Assembly: GCA_010405405.1 (NCBI GenBank)
Contig: MU004237.1
Coordinates: forward strand, 1,809,345 to 1,873,344
Direction of reading: 5' to 3'
Length of the DNA stretch: 64,000 nucleotides
Source of the DNA: Microthyrium microscopicum
Taxonomy: Eukaryota
This document shows positions 13,791 through 27,169 of this stretch, piece by piece. Under the pieces are notes generated by a model, which was given only the letters and a program-made list of their open reading frames with translations, had not been told where the DNA came from and did no database searches. Positions within the stretch are counted from its first letter, which is position 1, and each line of letters opens with the position of its first letter. Position numbers and translations under genes: made by a program.

Positions 13791-14392
13791 CTGTTGTTCT
13801 ATTCGTACTTGTAGAGGTGTTTTGGTTCACAACAGTTGCAATAGACTTGTACGAATGTCGAGTTGCCAGCCTTTTGATAGATGGTCATTGCTACGAACAG
13901 CTGTTTGTGTTGCAAATCGAATCAATGCTATCGACTTGTTTGCAGAATGATAACAGATATTTTAGCTATGAGAGTATTTCCTTCTAGCTGACCATCGAAG
14001 TCTGGATAAAGCCAAGAGTGGGAGGATCCCGCACTTGTTTATTCGCCTCCTGATCGTATCGATATGATTCGTCCTCGACCACGATGATATCGTTCAGAAT
14101 CATCCAATTCGATCAGGCTGTCGAGCTAATCGTCAACTAGAATCGAAATCTGCTCTTGGAATACCATGATGATGGTTGAAATTTACCTCAGCGGTACCAA
14201 TATAATGAGCTCCTTGAAGAAGGGGCACCGGAACTCCCATGACCGTACTGAACTTCATCTTTGTAACGAGCCATCTTCAGGTGAGATTGTACATTACAAC
14301 AATACTTTCGACAGATCACAATCACCTTTTTCGTACAAAAACTCTTTTAGCAGGCGGTTGCTTGGTCGCTCCTCGATTCCTGTTTTCACGCT

Positions 14393-16675
14393 ATGCGTTC
14401 TTCACTTCTGTTCGCGGCATGTACATGTCTATGGACCCTCGTTGCGGCGCAAGAAAGTATAGGAGGCCACTCGGTCGGCGGACATGGCCATAAACACATG
14501 CACAGTCGAAATGTCAACCACGACAAACCTAAACCCAAGGCCAAGAAGCGTGAAGCCAAGAAACAGCCTCCTGTCCCTGGAGCCAACTCACAACAAAATG
14601 AGCACAATAGGAAAATCGGAGCAAAGAAGCGAGGTACAGAGAAGTATGATTTCTCATCTCTGCTTTGGGTCAAGAACGCGTCTAAGGTAGCTGCTAAATC
14701 TCATCCAAACAGAAAAAATGGAGCTAGAAAACGATCTTTGCCGAAGTATGATTTCTCATCTCTGCTCTGGGTTAAGAACATTTCCAAGGTTTTGAGCCAG
14801 CCTCATCCAAATCGAAAGAATGGAGCGAAGAAACGAGAGATTGGAAGACGCCAGACTTCCACAGATGGTTCGTGTGGAGCGGGAGTTGGTACTTGTCCTG
14901 CAGGTCAATGCTGTTCAGCTTCTGTAAGTATTATGACTTCGCAATCGAGCTTAAAGCATAGCACTGATCGAATCAGGGATGGTGTGGCGTTGGTATACAG
15001 TATTGTGCTTCTCCAGATTGCCAATTGGACTATGGTCCAGGCTGTGATGCCAACACTATACCTCCTGGAACCACAACCTCAGGTGTAGCAAGGACACAGT
15101 CAACATCTCCGAAGATTCTTTACGGTGGTGCCGGAATATATCATTGCACAGTATGCATTGTCAACACACTCAGATTCTGTGTCTAACATGCTACAGGTCC
15201 CTGGTACCATTGCCATAACTTATGATGACGGACCATACAACTATACAAGCAACGTCTTGGACTTGTTCGACAAATACAACGCAAAAGCCACGTTCTTCAT
15301 CACCGGCAACAATCTCGGAAAAGGCGAAATTGACGACCCATCCACCCCATGGCCAGCCATAATCAAACGCATGGAAAGTTCAAACCACCAAATCGCCTCA
15401 CACACTTGGAGTCATGAAGATCTGTCCGAAATCACAGCCACGCAGCTCCAAAACCAGATTTATTACAACGAAATGGCTTTCCGCAACCTTTTAGGTTATT
15501 TCCCAACCTACATGCGTCCACCCTACTCATCATGCACATCCGCCTGTTCAACTTTCCTCGGTACAGCAGGCTACCACATCTGCTATTTCGATCTCGACAC
15601 TGAGGACTATCTGCACAACGACCCAACGCAAATCCTTGTCTCGCATCTCGACGTCACTGGCAACTTATCCACCGGCAATAATCCTAAAGTCAATTCATGG
15701 CTCAGCGTCTCTCACGACATTGACTATGAGACGTCGTATGACTTGACGGAATTTATGCTCAAGACTTTTACGACCGCTGGCTTCAACATGACAACTATAG
15801 GCGACTGTCTCGGCGATCCCAAAGCAAACTGGTATCGTACGGCGGGAGGCGCCGCTGCATTCACACCAAAAGCATCAGCAACTTCATCTGCTGCCGCAAA
15901 TGCTACGGGCACAACAACAGACGGATCCTGTGGTGCCGCAAATGGTGGCTCATGTGCTAATTCCGGCTTCGGTAATTGCTGCTCAGCAAGCGGATGGTGT
16001 GGAACTGGGACAACGTACTGCGGTGATGGATGTCAAGTTGGTTACGGCACCTGTGGAAACTCCACCGCTACCTCAACCTCAGCAGCGCCAGTCAGCACAA
16101 AAGTCTCCACTGACGGGACCTGTGGCGGGACGAATGGCTACACCTGCACAAACAGTGGTTTTGGCAATTGTTGCTCAGCCGGCGGCTGGTGCGGCTCAAC
16201 TTCCGACTACTGTGGTGCAACCTGCCAGACGTCTTTCGGTACTTGTGGCTCTTCGAGTGTCGTTTCATCTGCTGGTGTGGTAGTCTCTTCTGCTGGCGCC
16301 TCTGCCGTTGGAAAAGCATCGTCAGTTGTCGGTGGCCTTGTCTCATCAGCTGGCACATCAGCGAGCACTACATCAGCGACATCGAAATCCAGCTCTGTGA
16401 CATCCTCTTCCTCGGCAAAAACAACCAGCACCACATCGTCCACGACATCCACGACATCAAAGACCTCATCCACCACTTCATCCACTGCTGCAGCTAGTAC
16501 ACTCAAAGTCAGCACGACCGGACAATGTGGCGTGGGCACTGGACTGACGTGCAAGGGATCCACCATTGGCACTTGTTGTATCCAAGCAGCGGACTTGGTT
16601 CCTGGATTGTGTATGTCTAGTATATCGTGTACGCTAATGTCTGCGTTTTGCAGGACGGCTTATGGAACTTGTTAA
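14393..16675 (+). CDS. Secreted CE4 chitin/polysaccharide deacetylase with several CBM18 (hevein) domains; introns 14924-14976, 15151-15196
   Basis: Signal peptide; TYDDGP, HTWSH, MRPPY, SHD CE4 motifs; CG..C..CCS..GWCG repeats; Ser/Thr linkers. Confidence 0.93.
14633..14836 (+). repeat. Two tandem 102-bp (34-aa) coding repeats, each ending in a tribasic site
   Basis: gaagtatgatttctcatctctgct at 14641 and 14743; KYDFSSLLWVKN...HPNRKNGA(K/R)KR occurs twice. Confidence 0.9.
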
Positions 16676-17088
16676 TTTGATAGAGTATTGAGGACTGGAA
16701 TATGAAGATGGGAGGATTTGTATGTTTGGTCTCTCGTTAAATTGATATAGCAATTACGAAATAAAGAAGAATCTTTTGATGTCCACTGCCTTTCTGACTG
16801 CAAGCTTCTGGAAAACCGGGACCATCACTTTTCGTTCAGCCTTATGCAGGGCGTGCATTTCGAAATCAGCTATTGAGTCCCCTATTGTTGCCATAGCAAA
16901 CTGCAATTGCCCAGAGTTTGGTGAGAAGTGACGGATAATCTTGGAGGTGTAAAAGCATCATCTTGCCTTCCAAAGTTTTTTTGACCTTCCAATTACCCCA
17001 CTGTGTTCTCTGCCAACTCAATAACTCGACCATTTATATTGGAATTACATCTTAGGTACCAACCCATCTGGAAATTTCAACGACGGCA

Positions 17089-18456
17089 ATGTCTCATCCA
17101 GAGACCGCCATCCTCTATGCCAGTCCCGACGATCGCATCTTTGTGATCGATATACCCACCAGCATCCAACTCGCCCAAGGACGCACGCAACGTCTACTTT
17201 CGCAAGAACCACGCGTGACACCATATCCATCCATTGAGCCAAAGACCGCTAAAGCTCGTACGAATGTTCTTGAGAGTGGCCAAGGTAAGCATTTTCCCAG
17301 ATTGGGTTCGAATAGTCCTCCAGTCAGTCTATAGCGACTACAACGAATGTTACAAGAACAACTTACTGTTACATTTCCATCAGATATATCCCTCTTTACT
17401 CTATACAACATCTATCGACCTAGACTAACAACCACAGGCCTCCTAGGCGACGACACAGCCCGCGAAGCAACCATAACCAACGCTCTCACCCACATATCCA
17501 ACCTAACCATCCCATTCCTCCACCCACGAGCAACCCCAAAAACCCACCCAAAACTCCCACCCACCCTCTTCCCATCCCTCCTAACAGCCGCCCAAACAAT
17601 CCACGCCGCCACAAAACCAAGCTCCTCCCACGACAAAGCAACCTGGGCCCCCTGGACACCACACCACATCAACAACACCGACTCTTCCCTCCCCTTATAT
17701 ATCCGCACACCACCACCACCGCCATCCACATCTACCAGCGATCATACCCCAACAGTACAAACATTCACCCTCCCACCAAACTCAAGCACAACCCAAACAA
17801 CCCTCCCCCTCCCAACCCCAACCCACGCCCCCACACCCACCACCGGCTTCCACCTAATAACCCTCGACGCCCCGTGGCCGAACCGCTCCGCCCGCCGCGC
17901 ACACCACTATGCCACCACGCGGCTCAAGGATGTGCGGACGTTACTTTCCGGCTTGAATTTGGATGCGCATATGGCTTATGATGGTAGGACGGTTGTTGGT
18001 GTGTGGGTTACGAATAGTTTGGCTGTGAGGGAAATTGTCTGCGGCGAAAGCGAGGGAAGTATGAATGGAAAAGGTGGTGGTGCAGGCGATGCGGGCTGGC
18101 TAGCAGAGTGTGGATTACGGGTATTTGAAGAGTGGGTTTGGGTGAAGACTACGAGTGCAGGAGAGGCGGTTTGTAGTGTGGAGAGTGTATGGCGGAAACC
18201 GTATGAGATTTTCGTGCTTGCGAGGGAGTTTGATGGTGAAGAGGGTGAGGAGGAAGAGGAGGTTGTTAGGAGGGTGATATTTGGGTGTGCGGATTTGCAT
18301 TCGCGGAAACCGCATTTGAAGGAGTTGTTGGAACGGGTGGTGGATTTGCCGGATGGTTATGAGGGGTTGGAGATATTTGCGAGGGGTGCGACTGCTGGAT
18401 GGCATGCCTGGGGAGATGAGGCACTGTTGTTCAATTGGGATGGGTTTTGGGAATGA
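17089..18456 (+). CDS. MT-A70 family (METTL4-like) adenine methyltransferase; intron 17285-17437
   Basis: IDIPTSI..AQ, LDAPWPNRS, VWVTN, EEWVWVKTT, RKPYE, HSRKP, LEIFAR, GWHAWGDE motifs. Confidence 0.9.
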
Positions 18457-18586
18457 AGAGATTGTATTATTATATAGTGTGTGATTACTGCTTAGCGATG
18501 GCTTGAGAAAGCATGTACTAGTACCTGAAAATACCCATTAGCATAATGATCATCAACAATTTGAGATAGTTTGATGGGTTTGTGTG

Positions 18587-18663
18587 GTTGTCAGGTCTCC
18601 AAGGAAATACTCTACATAAAAGTTCGGAAAGAACGCAGCGATTTCTTTTTTCTCATCATCCAA
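18587..18663 (-). ncRNA. Box C/D snoRNA, U55/SNORD55-like, with an additional 5.8S guide
   Basis: C box ATGATGA (18659-18653), D' CCGA, D CTGA (18594-18591); TCGCTGCGTTCTT is antisense to 5.8S AAGAACGCAGCGA; CCTTGGAGAC is antisense to LSU GTCTCCAAGG. Confidence 0.85.
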
Positions 18664-18819
18664 AGGATTGGGGCGGAAAGGGTTGAGCTTACCTTTCTTG
18701 TCAACCTACAGGTTGGGATATCATTCATTATCTGCCAGTAGAAAGTGTTAGTCAAACGCTCACAGACACAGTTTTGTGCGACGGCTATGTTGATATGCCA
18801 CAGACAGCAATTGCTATCT

Positions 18820-18974
18820 TGAGTCAGGCTGTAAGTTGTTAGTCATTGGCCACGTCAAATGTGACGGGATTGCATACCTCATTAAATCAGAATTTTCAGT
18901 GTTGATAATATCACAGAGGAAGTGTTGTTTAGGCACGACCAAATCAAACAGTGTGAATGTTGATCATCATACAA
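18820..18974 (-). ncRNA. snR51: Box C/D snoRNA, snR51 homologue, interrupted by a 49-nt intron (18877-18829)
   Basis: C box ATGATGA (18970-18964); ATTCACACTG-t-TTGA(D') fits LSU Um2729; after splicing CTGATTTAATGAG|C-CTGA(D, 18827-18824) fits SSU Am100. Confidence 0.85.
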
Positions 18975-19070
18975 GGCAATGTGTTGCGTTGAGAAAGACT
19001 TTTTACTCACTGCTCCAAGTTAGCAGATAGTCTCGCAAAGCTTGAAGCAAAGATGGCATGTTGAAGTTTG

Positions 19071-19200
19071 AAAATCAGCTGACGAGTTCTCAACAAGTAC
19101 TTCCCGCCCGTCACCCACAGAGTTTGTACGCTCTGATACGAGGAGTGGGAGCTAAGGGGTACACATCTGTCCGCCCGTTCGTTCAAAGTTCGTCATGTAG
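19071..19200 (-). ncRNA. snR70: Box C/D snoRNA, snR70 homologue
   Basis: C box ATGACGA (19196-19190), D CTGA (19078-19075); ACGGGCGG-a-CAGA(D')-TGTGTAC is antisense to SSU GTACACACCGCCCGT (D'+5 = yeast Cm1639); lies between snR41 and snR51 as in yeast. Confidence 0.82.
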
Positions 19201-19301
19201 AAGGTTGGTTGGGGTTGAGGAGTTGATGATGGCATACCTATCGTCAACAATGTTAGCTTTCAATCTTGGCATGGAGAGAAGAAATCTGTGCTGTTTGTTT
19301 G

Positions 19302-19393
19302 CGGTTCATACAAGGCTGAAACTTATGCAGGAAATATCGACATGGAAATTCAGGACGAGGAATGCCAATTCACGGTCCGGTATAATCAAAACC
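19302..19393 (-). ncRNA. snR41: Box C/D snoRNA, snR41 homologue
   Basis: C box TTGATTA, D' CTGA (19353-19350), D ATGA (19309-19306); TAAGTTTCAGCCTTG is antisense to SSU CAAGGCTGAAACTTA (D+5 = yeast Gm1126); TTCCTCGT before D' fits Am541. Confidence 0.85.
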
Positions 19394-19539
19394 AAAGAGT
19401 GTGTGGAGAATGAGATGGGGAAAAGCTTACCTTTACAATTTAACTACGTGGCGGGCATGGCGACAAGGACTGAATGAAAGCTCTATAATAGCGTTAGCTG
19501 ATGCAGAATGTTGCCAACATGAATGGAAAAGAGTTGAAT

Positions 19540-19616
19540 GAGTTCAGAGTAATTCTAGAGTTAATTATGCTCCTCATAATTTTTAGGAGTTGGATTGTTA
19601 TACGTTCATCCTTGTG
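19540..19616 (-). ncRNA. Box C/D snoRNA, U45/SNORD45-like, with a probable second LSU guide
   Basis: C box AGGATGA (19612-19606), D box CTGA (19547-19544); CTCTAGAATTAC is antisense to SSU GTAATTCTAGAG (D+5 = human Am159 equivalent); AACAATCCAAC is antisense to LSU GTTGGATTGTT. Confidence 0.82.
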
Positions 19617-20164
19617 TGGGGAGGGTGGAGATGGCGGTGTCGACTTACCAAGTCTTTGTGAGTAAGAAAAACATGCTCTAGAGCTTTCGTATCAATGGCC
19701 AGCCATGATAGCGATGACAGGGCCAAATGCGCTGATGGCAAGTTGGTTGGAGGCAGTGGATGGTGGAGTGAAAAAAGTTTGGAGCTGGGGCTTCGTGGTG
19801 CTGAGGTTGGGGAAATTTCGGAGAGCGCTAGGCCATTTTAGACTTAGCGTCAATCGTTGACTTCTAGTGTAATTTCCTGGTCTCGGTCGTAAGTTGTAAC
19901 CATCTGACCATTGCAGTATCAAGACGAACAAATGGCCCTCGTGTAATTACCATTCATGTGGGATCGTCAATATTACAGTATACAGATGAAACATATATCA
20001 CTAGGCTATCATTTAGTAAGTTGCTACTAACATAAATTTTCCCAACCATGGTATCAAAATCTCCTAGAAGAGCAAACAGCCACCCAAACCGTGACCCATA
20101 GACCATCCATCGCAGATCCAACGCCGAACGCAATGCATACCATTTTTCACATCCCTATCATAGC

Positions 20165-21554
20165 TCAATTCGTCAACAGATCTCTCACACTCATACTCCG
20201 CCCACCGCCAGCCTGACCCTGCCCACCACTCGCAGAAGCCGAACTCGCACTCCCGCGCTCACTCCAGCTCCTCCGATCCGTATTCAGCAAAAGTAACGCC
20301 GCCGTCGCCTCCTGGTCTTCACTCTGCGGCGCGATGACCGGACTTGTCAAATTCAACGGCGCAAAACCTGAATGCGCATGACTCGTAAACACAGGACTTG
20401 ACAGCGCAGACCCCGCGCCAGTAGGCGGAGGCGGTAGATAGGCATATGAGTTGGCGCGTGTATGTGGACTATGGCTCATTGGTGGTAGGGTAGGTGAGAT
20501 GGATGGTAGACGGCGTGATGATTGTTGGGGTGGTTGAGGGTGGGAGAATGGGTTTTGCAGAACAGAGGGGTTTTGCTGCGTGTTTTGCTGCGCGTTCTGC
20601 TGTGCAGTGGCGAGGACTTGGCGGATTGGTGGGAGGTCTTTCATGTCAGTGTCTTGTTGGTGGACGACGGATGAGGAGCGTGTGGAGGGATGGGTTGATG
20701 GGTGGGTGGGGACGGATGGGCATTGGTCGTGTGCGGATTTTAGGTCTGAAAGACAGGATTCTAGGTAGCGCATGTATTCGATGCTGGCCTGAGAGAAGGG
20801 TTAGTCTCAGGTAGGAGTAGGAAGGTAGGATAGGACGTACTTGAAGGATGGCGAGTTTGTGCATTTCTTGGCCCGTACATGCTGGTATCATATCTTTCAA
20901 GACGCCGAATTCTTCGTTCATCTTGGATCGTCTTCGTCGTTCGATCAGGCTGTGGGCAGTCTTGCGGGCCATCTTGCGGCCGGCGGCGGTGTTTGGTGGA
21001 CCGGATGGTTGTTTTCGTTTTGTCCCTGATGGAGGGTTGGTACCAGTGGCTGTTATAGTTGTAGTAGTCGAGTTCTTTGAAAGAACGACCGCTGGTGCAA
21101 TCATGGTTTGTGATTTTGAACCTCGAGTATTGGTGGATTTGGTAGATATCAATGGCTCTGTAACTTCGTCTTGTTCGTTCCGCGGTCTCATCTGAATTAT
21201 TTTACGATTCCTGGTTGGAGGAGGTGGTAGAGTATAGTCCATTTGTTGAGAGTTTGGTCCATTAGAAGCACTGCTTTTACGCTTAGAGGTACTCGAATTC
21301 CTTGCTTTTGGCCCGGATGGGGGCGGTGATACAGGGGAATATGAAGAGTCGGAGGTTTGATTTCCACTCGATATGATTGATGGGGTACGAGTATTTGGGG
21401 TACTTGAGATAGCAGCTGGCGGCAAAGCAAAAGAGCTATCAACTGGAGATGCTAGAGATACAGACTTTGCTTGTATCTCCGAGGAGGGAGCTGGTGTTAA
21501 AAGTCCAGCATTGGATGCTGAAGAAGCAGCTGCAGAAGTTCTTGGTTTTGGCAT
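20165..21554 (-). CDS. bHLH transcription factor (possibly SclR/UrdA-like); intron 20789-20840
   Basis: KTAHSLIERRRRSKMNEEF..LKDMIPAC..HKLAILQ|ASIEYMRYLE; C-terminal MSVRDLL. Confidence 0.92.
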
Positions 21555-24174
21555 GGTGAATATATGTTGGTCAATATCTCATACGACAGAGGTCTCGGCC
21601 CAATCGATGTATCCAAAAACTCGTTTGATAGAAGGCTAAGGTGGTGTGTTGGAGTAAGTGGCGTTGAAGTATCAATTCGTCAATCTTGTGGGTTATGGCG
21701 CCAGAGGAGGCAGTATTCAGCCGCACAGCAGTGTAGACGATCTAGTTGGAGTAACAAGGCTGAGATGCGCTATTGACTTGAGAGATCACTGATGAAGAGG
21801 ATGAGTATGGAAATGAAGAGAAAGATAATTGCAAGCAAAACGATTTGAAGCAAAGACTAAGGCAGAGGGGCTGAAGTTAGAATAGTTGAAAAGCTATGGG
21901 GTGGAGTGTCTGGTGCTCGTGTGAGCTTGGTTTGGAGAAGTTGAGGTGCATTCTGGACGACACGCGACACATGCCATAACCAACGAATTGTATTGGCTGA
22001 CGGAATTGATGCATGTGTTTTCGTAGATGGAGGCGTGGGGTACATTGGTGTCTGGATTCGCCAGTTTTCTCTCTCTGTCCAGACCATCGACATCTACTCC
22101 TATCAAATCCATTCCCAGCCTTGGACCAAAAGGTCGCATGGTCACATATTGCTGGGAGATTGGATAAATGACCTCAACTGTCCTTACTGACTCTAGATGC
22201 ATTACTGGCGGTGCGGCGTAACATTTAGCCAGTCGCAGATGCACGATGCCTAGTTCTCTATCAATAGACGTTCGCCTCATGCAGCCGTGAATAATAGCTC
22301 TTCCATCTCTGTGAACTCCTGCAACCTTCAATAGTTGATCGGCGGGATGACAAGCTCCATCGTGGTGTTGGAGAAAAGTTGATTGTCTCCAAAGCACAAG
22401 CGTGGGCTAAAGGCTTGTGCTCAAGTCTCGACCTTTCTACCGGAACTCATCTTTACGTAGATTCGGTTGTACGAAAGCCAATGCAAAAGGCACGAGATCA
22501 TCTGTGCGCCATTGATATCCTTGGACCCCGGTGGCTTTCGCTTGGCATTTTGATGTCCTTCATTACTACATCCGGATAATGCGATACACCTATAAAGCTG
22601 ATTGCGCATACCTTATTCTCGAGTTCATTGCTTGTACTGCTAACTGGAGAAGGAGCAACTCTCGAAAGAATAAGAGGCTCTGTCTTTGCCCCAATCAAAT
22701 CCAGTAAGACTCTATGGAACAAAAGAAAATCAAAGCCAGAAGATGGAAAGCACAACACAGGGCTGGGTTTGCACCCAGACACGTGCCTGGTATTTCCGCT
22801 GGTTACGTCTCAAGTTAAACCTGGGAGCACGCAAATACTTATCCATTGATCTTCAGGGCACCAGCGCATTGATCAGGTTCAAAGAAACTAATTATCTCAA
22901 TTTGGAAATGAGTCTAGCCAGTTAGGATGTGCAAAGAAAAAATCAGTCGACAACGCGAAAAGTTCAGAAACATGTTTCGCGCTTGAAGTTTGAATGATTT
23001 TGCTTGCCATTTCCAGGTCTCATAAACAGCAATCGTTACTTCAAGTCCACGTGCCAATTGGGGGCTGGTAACTGCGCTATCGGCGTCAGTTTGCCACGCA
23101 CGACTCGAGATGTTGGAGATAGCAGAGCAGCAGCAGCAGATAGGAACGATGATTCTTCAGGGTTCGAAAGGCAGCATCAGTAGTAAGGTGCGATGTAGGA
23201 CGATAGGCTAGCCACGTCGCAATGATGACGGGAAGCGGATGTTTGTTTATATGGAAATCAGGATGTTTCTTTCCTTCTGGAAATAGAAGAGATTGCAGTA
23301 TCCAAAGTTTGTATGCAGACCTTCCAGGAAAGTGGTTGTGATGGAAGAGGTGGATGGCCCCCTTTTAGTACCGCTTCCCCTCATCCGATGGCCTTCCATA
23401 TTTGCGGTTGCCGTCAGAGGCTGGGGAAGTGGATAAACTTGGAGAATTATGGAAAGGCTGTATGACATCTTTGTCAGGAAATCTAGCATTGTTTATTTGC
23501 AAGCTGAGAAAGTTGTTGGTACTCACTCTTTGGAGCAAGATGTATGCCAGGAACCTTCATACCTTCAGCTGTACTCGGTACCAGATAATCAAAGACATGT
23601 GCAACTGTAGTAAAGAATCACTAGATGGAATAGAAGGGGATGAAAGATTTATTTGGGCTCAAGCTCGACGCGAATCCTGAGAGCGATCCGACAATTGATA
23701 GACGTTGGTTGCAACTTGCAAGCAAGTGGGCAGGTACGGAGCAGCCCCAGTCAACCCTGATAACGAACCCCCGAGTCCTGAATCTCTCATCCTCCATGTC
23801 CCTCAAGCTGCTCACTGCTCACGCAAAACTGCTCACTCGCACCTGAACATTGTCACCATCATCGTTAACCCTCCCTGCACTACTTTTCTGCTCTGCTACT
23901 CCTTGAACCTTTCAAAGACTTAATCTGCTCCTTCTTCCCTATCAATTCTGCTCCTACTGTCCCAAGCTGAGCCTGTTTACCTGTCCCTCTCCCGCCATTC
24001 AGCCAGTCTTCCAACTCTCATCCTCCATCTTTCTGTCATCACCACCACTGATCAACTCTCTCGGCCCATTCGTATTATTTCTCATACAATTACTCTCCTG
24101 CGGCCTTCTCTATCACCACAGTCTTACGACTCACTTTATTACCTCACACGTTCATCATACACATACTACTTGAC

Positions 24175-24864: not shown

Positions 24865-25659
24865 AATTGATGACTATTGCTAACAGTGTTTTGATTGCAG
24901 TGCCAGTGCAGACAGGATCGGAAGAGGATAAAGGAGGGGAAAATCAACAGTCGGATGAGACGCCCTCCGGTCCCCACCGCAGCAGACGCTGGCTTTGCTT
25001 TGGACGAAAGGCCAACTCCTCGGCTGACAGCTCACGATCTACCCCTGACCCCAGACGCAACGCGGACTCTCCATCAACAGACCAGAAACCGGGCTTTTGG
25101 AGTGAGGTCAAAAATGATGTGCGAGCCCATCATCAGCGAAAAGAGCAACAGCGAGAAGACGAGCGACGAAAATTTATTGCGCGGGTAATGCGAGACAACG
25201 CGGAGAATGAAGAACGTCGGCGCGCATAGCAGCGGCCGTTAGATGAGGAGCAAGCAGCTCTACAGCAAGAAGAGAATCGGCGAGGAGATGAACGGCGAGC
25301 AGAACGAGATCGAGCAGCTCTAGAGGAACCGCATCTACAGCGAGTTGCAGCTCAAGAGCGAGCAGCTCAACAGCTGGCTGACCAACAGCAACGAGATCAA
25401 GAGCAAGCAGCTCAACAGCAACGAGATAAACAGCAAAGGAGGCGTCGTTTGCCAGGCTTCAAATCCCTAACAAACACAACACATCGCACAACCGGTACCC
25501 CCGGTCAGCCTACGCCAACCCGACAGCGACTCAGGGACTTTTTTCGCAATCATCGCCCATTAACCCGTCGAGAGAAAGATGATAATGACAAAGACAGCAA
25601 AGACAAGAACGACAAAGGCGATGACAAGAACCGCCCTGACAGCAAGGATGATGCCAACA

Positions 25660-25830
25660 CGAACAACGATACTACCGGCAATGCTACCACCGGCAATGCT
25701 ACCACAGGCCATGATGCCAAAGGCAGTGACTCCGATGGAAACAACACTACAGGCAATGACTCTAGAGGCAATGACTCCAATGGAAGCAACACCACAGGCA
25801 ATGATTCCAGAGGCAATGACTACAAGGGAA
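25660..25830 (+). repeat. Degenerate 15-bp tandem repeats encoding GN(D/A)xx pentapeptides
   Basis: ggcaatgctaccacc, ggcaatgactctaga, ggcaatgattccaga units. Confidence 0.75.
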
Positions 25831-27169
25831 AAGGCAAGCAACGCGCATATCCCATCAGGCCTGATTCCTCCGAGTCGCCAAATCCCTTCCTAGCACCAGA
25901 ACATTCTACGGGACAAACCCCACAGGGGCCAATCGGACCTGTGTCTGATAGTGGTTTTGACTCGGAGAACATGTCAAGGCAGCGTCAGCTTGTCGAAGGG
26001 GATCGTCTCGTTCTCCCAGGAGAACCAGACAATGTTGATGAGGACCCGGATGCGATCACTGAGGTGGACCCAACGATCGCTAGACTTCCCAGAATCACAC
26101 TTACTGATCCGGGTCCTGTTCCGGGTCCGAATGGCCTACGAATTCTCGAGCATGAATTCACGATTGAAAGCATGAGGTAAGTAGTCTTGTTTGTCACTTC
26201 TCATCGAATTGTCAAAATGGTTGCATTGTCTACTGTACAAGCCATGCTAAGAGTCCTCTTGAATCTGCCATGGAGCCTGTCACAATTTGCATACAAGAAA
26301 AGCAAAACGACTAGCCGAAGTTGCTACCATTTTTTCCATCACTGCCGCTTTTCAAATCTCAGCAGATTTGGCGCGTTTGGATTGCGGATACAACCATAGC
26401 GCCTGTCATACATTTGCAAAGCCAATACTAACAGATACTAGGGGTGCTCCATTAGAACGGGAGCAACTGGCACAATATAGGCGGGGCGAACTCCATCCAT
26501 CGCAGATTGAGCTCATGTCTCAACGCATTGCTTCAGCTCCAACTTCCGAAAGTCTAGATGCTACCCAACGGACCCAGATGGGGATTCCATACTTTCCAGC
26601 GCATGATCGCGCTTTGATTGAGTTTTTGTTCGTGGAAACCATAGACCATCAACTACCCTGTACTCCTCAGCGTGCTCTGGAACGAAGTCTCAACTATATG
26701 CGTTACCGTCACCCCAATACCTTCTGGTCATACTTTGATGCATCAGTTGGAGCATCACTATCTTCGCCTCCAACTTCAACAGCTGCTGGAGCGAGTTCCT
26801 CTCTACGGCTATCACCTGCAGAATGGCAATCGGTATCGCAGTCCTTTCAACGAATTATCTCGGCAGGAGTTCCACTATTACGTCGTCGTTCATCTGCTAG
26901 ATCGTCATCGGCAGGTCCTTCAGCGGTACGATCAGTGGTAAGAGCTCCAATCTCAGGACCATCCAACGCAGGACTCCCACTGCCAGAACTTCGTAGAGAA
27001 CTTGGAGCATGGGGACTTTTGGAAGGAGAAACAGATTATGAAGTGCCACATATTATACCACCACCATTTCCTGAAGGACCGTATGTATCGCCATCAACTG
27101 AATCGACATCAATTAGCTCGGGCTGGGTTGGAACGTCAACAGTTGGATCGCCGGTAATTGGATCGCCAC

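Follow-up and report, generated by a model that had tools for sequence, protein, structure and literature searches.

The window, i.e. the whole analysed stretch of 64,000 nucleotides, contains an apparent gap between two protein genes, in which the first-pass annotation had placed five box C/D snoRNAs within five consecutive introns separated by tiny non-coding exons.

Organisation and expression of the locus

The locus spans 19733-18457 on the minus strand, with a helix-loop-helix gene (PF00010) upstream and a convergent MT-A70 gene (PF05063) downstream, and the cluster is present in a single copy in the genome. Five box C/D snoRNA units were found on the minus strand from 19612 to 18591, each within a spliceosomal intron, in the order U45-snR41-snR70-snR51-U55 and with ten predicted guides against the rRNA of the same genome (Table 1). 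The U55-like unit is presumably equivalent to human U55. Its name was taken from Luo et al. (2013). Six introns were delimited, leaving only two internal exons of 51-52 nt (exon 2) and 39 nt (exon 3). Introns I and II abut with zero bases between them, the end of intron I directly meeting the donor of intron II (a zero-base exon), introns II and III overlap by one base, and the sixth intron, intron B, lies within snR51. The claim of five intronic C/D snoRNAs on the minus strand with complements to rRNA was borne out by the boxes, the guides against own rRNA and the spliced contigs. The five introns with tiny exons had to be redrawn as six introns, those of snR41, snR70 and snR51 having no exons between them, and only the two small exons were retained.

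Expression data consisted of one public run, taken to be RNA by guess, kept as contigs and unstranded, which may not be independent of the genome assembly. The joints of this run look intron-like in four genes. Its contigs were compared over 17000-21800, with the stretch 18732-18918 lacking cover; they gave four GT-AG-compatible splicing outcomes in the host and, besides the host joints, one intron joint in each neighbouring gene. The coding potential of the spliced host, examined over the exons of 85, 51 and 39 nt plus the initial 325 nt of the last one, is low: one ATG frame is closed with 22 aa, and one is open with 68 aa and starts inside the antisense MT-A70 coding region. No exact copy of a Homol-D-type promoter motif lies close to the start of the host. 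The contig runs unbroken through a 37-nt stretch that resembles an intron just after 18524, and this candidate was rejected. For annotation, the locus represents a single-copy gene with about ten predicted rRNA methylations, which pipelines for protein genes would not name.

Table 1. Positions of the host exons, introns, snoRNAs and guides within the window (sites in own-rRNA numbering)
Feature	Positions	Strand	Remarks
Host exon 1	19649-19733	-	Contig joined to exon 2; 5' limit is the contig end, not a mapped start
Intron A (166 nt, GT-AG)	19483-19648	-	Joint 19482/19649; carries U45-like snoRNA
U45-like C/D snoRNA	19544-19612	-	Own-rRNA complements; in intron A
U45-like D' guide	19599-19589	-	LSU G3505; N. 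crassa 26S-Gm2875
U45-like D guide	19560-19549	-	SSU A154; N. crassa 18S-Am154
Host exon 2 (51 nt in mature RNA)	19432-19482	-	Joint 19432/18731
G19431	19431-19431	-	Exon-terminal for introns I and II; putative opening base of a rebuilt donor of intron III
Intron I (193 nt)	19238-19430	-	Joint skips 193 nt, introns II and III retained to 18919; carries snR41
snR41-like snoRNA	19306-19389	-	Rfam Afu_455 and snR41 below gathering score; in intron I
snR41 D' guide	19366-19355	-	SSU A1680
snR41 D guide	19325-19311	-	SSU G1177; N. crassa 18S-Gm1122
Intron II (228 nt)	19010-19237	-	Sequence, with presumed separate removal; carries snR70
snR70-like snoRNA	19075-19196	-	Rfam snR70 sub-threshold; in intron II
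snR70 D' guide	19178-19171	-	SSU C1746; only 8 nt
Intron III body	18732-19009	-	700-nt joint 19432/18731; carries split snR51; donor presumably completed by G19431
snR51 5' part	18878-18970	-	C box and three guides; in intron III
snR51 D' guide	18958-18949	-	LSU U2844
snR51 second guide	18902-18892	-	LSU U2839; CTGA box 18890-18887
snR51 third guide	18890-18878	-	SSU A99; needs intron B removed
Intron B (49 nt, GT-AG)	18829-18877	-	Predicted from sequence, which also offers a branch point; between SSU A99 guide and D box
snR51 3' part	18824-18828	-	Spacer base and terminal D box; matches the 3' end seen in relatives that lack the intron
Host exon 3 (39 nt)	18693-18731	-	Between two joints of one contig record
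Intron C (168 nt)	18525-18692	-	Joint skips 168 nt; carries U55-like snoRNA
U55-like snoRNA (Rfam Afu_294)	18591-18659	-	Above gathering score; in intron C
U55-like D' guide	18641-18629	-	5.8S A43
U55-like D guide	18604-18596	-	LSU C1829; 9 nt
Last host exon, start	18457-18524	-	Unstranded contig continues into convergent MT-A70 gene

Guides and their support

Target sites were assigned by the D+5 rule on the rDNA of this genome (L001/L002, G000:C18:8203-14609), and the own-rRNA numbering includes insertions. The SSU match of this rDNA measures 1963 nt against 1831 in the model, and that of the LSU 3969 nt against 3401; the excess represents insertions, which are probably rRNA introns. Terminal C and D boxes were found together with antisense elements that end one base before box D or D'. 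LSU G3505 was counted by hand because the D' box of the U45-like unit is atypical, with two of its four bases off the consensus. Together with this box, the 8-nt guide of snR70 and the 9-nt D guide of the U55-like unit are the weakest. The four extra sites proposed by the first-pass annotation (SSU A154, LSU G3505, 5.8S A43 and LSU C1829) were recovered by the D+5 rule, while its list had omitted the D' guide of snR41 and the second 25S guide of snR51. Ten further own-rRNA matches of 8-9 nt in the region were treated as chance. The interior of snR70 (19104-19112, minus strand) holds a second 9-nt copy of the guide complement with no D-like box after it.

Five combinations of a guide of at least 11 nt, one base and a D-like box are present in the region. 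Its 500 dinucleotide shuffles contained 0.16 such combinations on average and never more than 3. The counts of 6, 5 and 4 obtained at 10, 11 and 12 nt were reached by none of the 500 shuffles, and the best of 110 other tiles of the window contained 3, 1 and 1. A cut-off of 9 nt is weak, with 8 observed and a shuffle maximum of 7 (300 shuffles). The Rfam check suggested in the first-pass annotation succeeded for one unit only, as the U55-like unit alone passes its gathering score (Afu_294, RF01506; 49.2 vs 43 bits; match 18588-18663). Sub-threshold matches, standing in the expected order, were obtained for Afu_455 (42 vs 48 bits) and snR41 (39.7 vs 50) at 19301-19395, for snR70 at 19058-19200 (24.6 vs 55 bits, E 0.031) and for snR51 at 18875-18974 (32.4 vs 44 bits); the U45-like unit has no Rfam match at E up to 10. 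The orthology of the snR41, snR70 and snR51 units is thus based on their guides and order and not on Rfam scores. An accidental occurrence of these motifs in the gap between the genes would agree with the narrow difference at 9 nt and with the mostly sub-threshold Rfam scores. It is refuted by the shuffles at 10, 11 and 12 nt, the spliced contigs, the order kept in relatives and the publication of the cluster, and its probability is considered negligible.

Related loci and published clusters

Metagenome contigs were scanned with the D guide of snR41, which gave at least 113 stretches, at least 80 of them with wide flanks. In 62 of the 113 listed stretches, representing 53 distinct loci, the snR51 guide lies downstream; the other 51, too short or different, were dropped. 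Among the matches listed, 41 distinct loci are covered on both sides, of which 29 have both the U45 and U55 guides, 9 only U45, 1 only U55 and 2 neither. The D' guide of snR41 is kept in 36 of the 53 loci among the matches listed, in a register pointing to the same A. Between snR51 and the U55-like unit, L016, L063 and L033 hold a sixth intronic C/D-like unit, which has a 13-nt guide to own LSU 2832 in the first two and an 11-nt guide to own LSU 2808 in L033.

The five-member cluster, its abutting introns and intron B are already published for filamentous ascomycetes, as cluster III (Luo et al., 2013; PMC3596301). The main text of that study describes U45 and U55 introns flanking snR41-snR70-snR51 in nearly all Euascomycetes examined, an intron-intron-intron block, and intron B in snR51 between the antisense element and box D. 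The present locus resembles it in the five members and their order, the non-coding spliced host, the two missing interior exons, intron B and the removal of intron I first. In contrast to the abutting introns reported there, introns II and III overlap here by one base and the mature host loses one exon base. In Neurospora crassa, according to the available text of Liu et al. (2009; PMC2780460), the U45-like CD17 of cluster III targets 18S-Am154 and 26S-Gm2875 and has no yeast homologues, CD9 targets 18S-Gm1122 and CD6 26S-Um2687, and 5.8S-Am42 was verified by primer extension. Within the same text, the targets of cluster III (CD17, CD9 and CD6) and of CD29 are as here, whereas CD6 is regarded there as exonic and given a single guide; the 5.8S site, here in the U55-like unit, is attributed to CD29, and Um2682, here in snR51, to CD49. 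The novelty that the first-pass annotation had implied for the flanking U45 and U55 units is therefore not sustained, the first study having already described both and the second the U45-like unit. Its description of snR41-snR70-snR51 as a conserved fungal cluster agrees with the main text of Luo et al. (2013) and with the relatives, and the non-coding host and the names of the units are supported by the joints, the guides, the order and the match with that study.

Probable stepwise splicing of the middle block

The locus is very probably the host gene of fungal snoRNA cluster III, with stepwise removal of introns in 5'-to-3' direction, a rebuilt donor and release of the intronic snoRNAs. Intronic C/D snoRNAs are released by debranching and trimming. 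After splicing of the non-coding transcript the snoRNAs would be freed from their introns in this general manner, and for each of them 2'-O-methylation of rRNA is predicted at the fifth base upstream of box D or D'. Introns A and C are removed in the ordinary way, their joints having been observed. In the middle block, intron I leaves first, exon 2 being joined to the intron II donor as was observed; intron II would then leave at the CAG ending 19010, placing G19431 before the remainder of the donor; removal of intron III would finally carry G19431 away, as in the observed final product. Intron B would be removed from inside intron III, so that the SSU A99 guide meets a D box, as its sequence and the intronless relatives suggest.

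One base, G19010, belongs both to the acceptor of intron II and, as its G, to the genomic GT donor motif of intron III. G19431 is present in the contig from which intron I is spliced and absent from the fully spliced contig. In the latter (one contig of one run), the 700-nt skip from 19432 to 18731 starts at G19431 and reads GG, not GT. Record lengths of 30+42+1086=1158 leave no letters between 19432 and 18731, and the sum of the bin depths is reported as the expected 559.9, where 561.1 would result if G19431 were kept, which fits a piece of 30 and not of 31 bases. The contig over 19010 agrees with the genome letter for letter and without gaps, so that a base lost in the assembly alone does not explain the shared G. 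As in nested splicing and in donor-interrupted stwintrons, the upstream G needed to complete the external donor is missing from the final product in this one contig. Most simply read, G19431 comes to stand before the remaining donor bases once introns I and II have left, and the donor of intron III is thereby rebuilt. As exon 3 starts with A, the reverse order of splicing cannot restore an acceptor here. Use of the GAG that ends at 19013 as an acceptor would leave an exon of 2 bases; it was rejected, the mature contig having no letters between.

EST evidence for 5'-to-3' removal is given in the main text of Luo et al. (2013), where skipping from one donor is named as also compatible. Applied to this locus, the cluster would be real and its middle block removed in one step from the sole exon-adjacent donor to any of three acceptors, with no rebuilt donor. 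The only intermediate among the contigs of the run is the one lacking intron I, and contigs drop rare forms; that an intermediate lacking intron II was not seen in them would be in line with removal in one step. However, a direct splice from intron I to intron III would skip 699 nt and keep G19431, so that the observed 700-nt skip without the G would need a GG donor, and removal in one step is considered highly improbable. Joint removal of introns I and II followed by intron III is possible and yet still requires the rebuilt donor. Stepwise splicing and one-step skipping, the question left by Luo et al. (2013), are thus separated by a one-base mark in the mature RNA.

Junctions were also compared across the 53 distinct loci by crude patterns, in loci that are related and do not count as independent events. 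Among the matches listed, junction I/II reads YAG|GY in 50 of the 53 loci and junction II/III does so in 42; a shared-G II/III junction occurs in 0 of 53, and 11 of 53 fit neither pattern at II/III. These relatives suggest that the shared G may have arisen when an AG|GT junction lost one G.

The shared-G junction is a new instance, on thin data, of a known mechanism. Among stwintrons it would presumably bear the label [D1,2]. Splicing of Candida cluster II is reportedly the subject of work by Mitrovich et al. from 2010, to which Donovan et al. refer. Nested splicing (negative-size exon) and recursive splicing are described for that cluster in the available text of Donovan et al. (2016; PMC5033589), where, as here, a G is common to an acceptor and the next donor and is regenerated from the last G of the upstream exon. 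It is, however, another cluster in another fungal group, and the reverse order works there by means of a downstream one-base G exon. The available text on donor-interrupted stwintrons (PMC8469720) likewise corresponds in that the donor of the external intron III is broken after its first base by an internal intron; the internal part here differs in consisting of two abutting snoRNA introns, within a non-coding gene. Searches by title and abstract start, with most subscription papers outside them, found in print neither a shared-G junction in cluster III nor a combination of stwintron and snoRNA. The main text of PMC3596301 has no mention of snR67 or overlap, and its figures or supplements may cover such a junction; the available parts of PMC8413462, PMC4138321 and bioRxiv 2024.10.08.617225 contain nothing of this kind. 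The locus lends itself, as a natural reporter, to the study of ordered splicing and to tests of a putative target switch by intron B.

Guides of snR51 and intron B

Removal of intron B from the sequence creates a 13-nt guide with a D box, and three guides together with two D boxes may be present in snR51. It is tentatively proposed, as a possible though doubtful reading, that snR51 in many filamentous ascomycetes has three guides and that splicing of intron B selects one of two alternative D boxes. The unspliced RNA of 84 nt would end at the first CTGA and address two neighbouring 25S uridines, whereas in the spliced RNA of 98 nt this CTGA would lie within the 18S guide. At this locus, the order imposed by the rebuilt donor would delay the removal of intron III and give intron B time; if true, the modification of rRNA would be coupled to the forced order of splicing. 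That the extra 25S guide and intron B belong together in this way is offered as a hypothesis that was not found in print, and searches by title and abstract start, which leave most subscription papers outside, gave no three-guide or two-D-box snR51.

Among the matches listed, intron B is found at the same position with a matching exit in 36 of the 53 distinct loci and is cut by the contig end in 2; it is absent, with the guide joined to the D box, in 9, and in the remaining 6 the 18S guide is either truncated or at another place. Of the 53 loci among the matches listed, 31 have the U2839 guide: it occurs in 29 with intron B, in two (L050 and L060) as split snoRNAs, and in none of the 9 intronless loci. 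The association between U2839 guide and intron B is only suggestive, because the loci are related and do not count as independent.

Several relatives differ in the architecture of snR51. In L033 and L034, intron B lies three bases further upstream than in the window and its removal gives the same sequence, an apparent case of intron sliding inside the guide. L067 seemingly has two introns in snR51, of which one separates the second 25S guide from CTGA and the other the 18S guide from the terminal D box. In L050 and L060, two successive introns downstream of snR70 divide the three guides of snR51 between separate snoRNAs: the first has the 25S pair and the second the 18S guide, still with intron B at a shifted position. 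In L024 the 25S and 18S guides of snR51 stand about 300 nt apart as separate units, the 18S one without intron B, and L055 and L065 resemble it.

The own U2839 is taken to be 25S-2724, from the 5-base spacing and the yeast numbering. The available text of Canzler et al. (2018; PMC5824354) predicts 25S-2724 as the D-box target of snR51 (CD_6) in Onygenales and part of Dothideomycetes, which is the same extra target, but makes no tie to intron B or to an overlapping 18S guide. Other carriers of the guides were searched for in the genome by pattern, which gives floors and no proof of absence: for the U2839 guide 1 exact and 18 one-mismatch places were found against 10 control matches, and for the A99 guide 1 exact and 3 one-mismatch places against 11 control matches. 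An Rfam scan of 9 of the 19 other U2839-guide places gave no match, the snR67 model has one match of 15.6 bits in the genome with no C box nearby, and the other exact A99-guide match has no consensus C box within 150 nt upstream.

Both 25S guides of snR51 match overlapping rRNA sequence, and 22 of the 53 distinct loci among the matches listed are without the U2839 guide. The snoRNA could hence be an ordinary one with two guides, whose complement to U2839 is a by-product of the overlap with the U2844 region and whose unspliced form gives nothing functional. This is rated as unlikely, as the 31 loci with the guide, among the matches listed, keep a single base after it and then CTGA, or in L067 the donor of an intron, and L050 and L060 retain it with CTGA in one snoRNA, the A99 guide and intron B being in a separate downstream snoRNA. 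The prediction of 25S-2724 as a D-box target of snR51, in the available text of PMC5824354, also argues against it, as does the outcome of the pattern and Rfam searches, in which, as floors, no other snoRNA-like carrier of the U2839 guide was found.

Neighbouring features of the window

The gene of the MT-A70-family methyltransferase (PF05063; 17285-18456, plus strand) ends 68 bases from the last splice site of the host. One unstranded contig spans both this gene and the host, so that the two transcripts may overlap at their 3' ends. A polysaccharide deacetylase with chitin-binding domains (PF01522, PF00187) is encoded at 14351-16675 on the plus strand, and the 5' frame of its gene contains a near-duplicated stretch of about 30 residues. 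Short tandem peptide repeats are found at 25560-25893, in the plus-strand frame 25230-26180.
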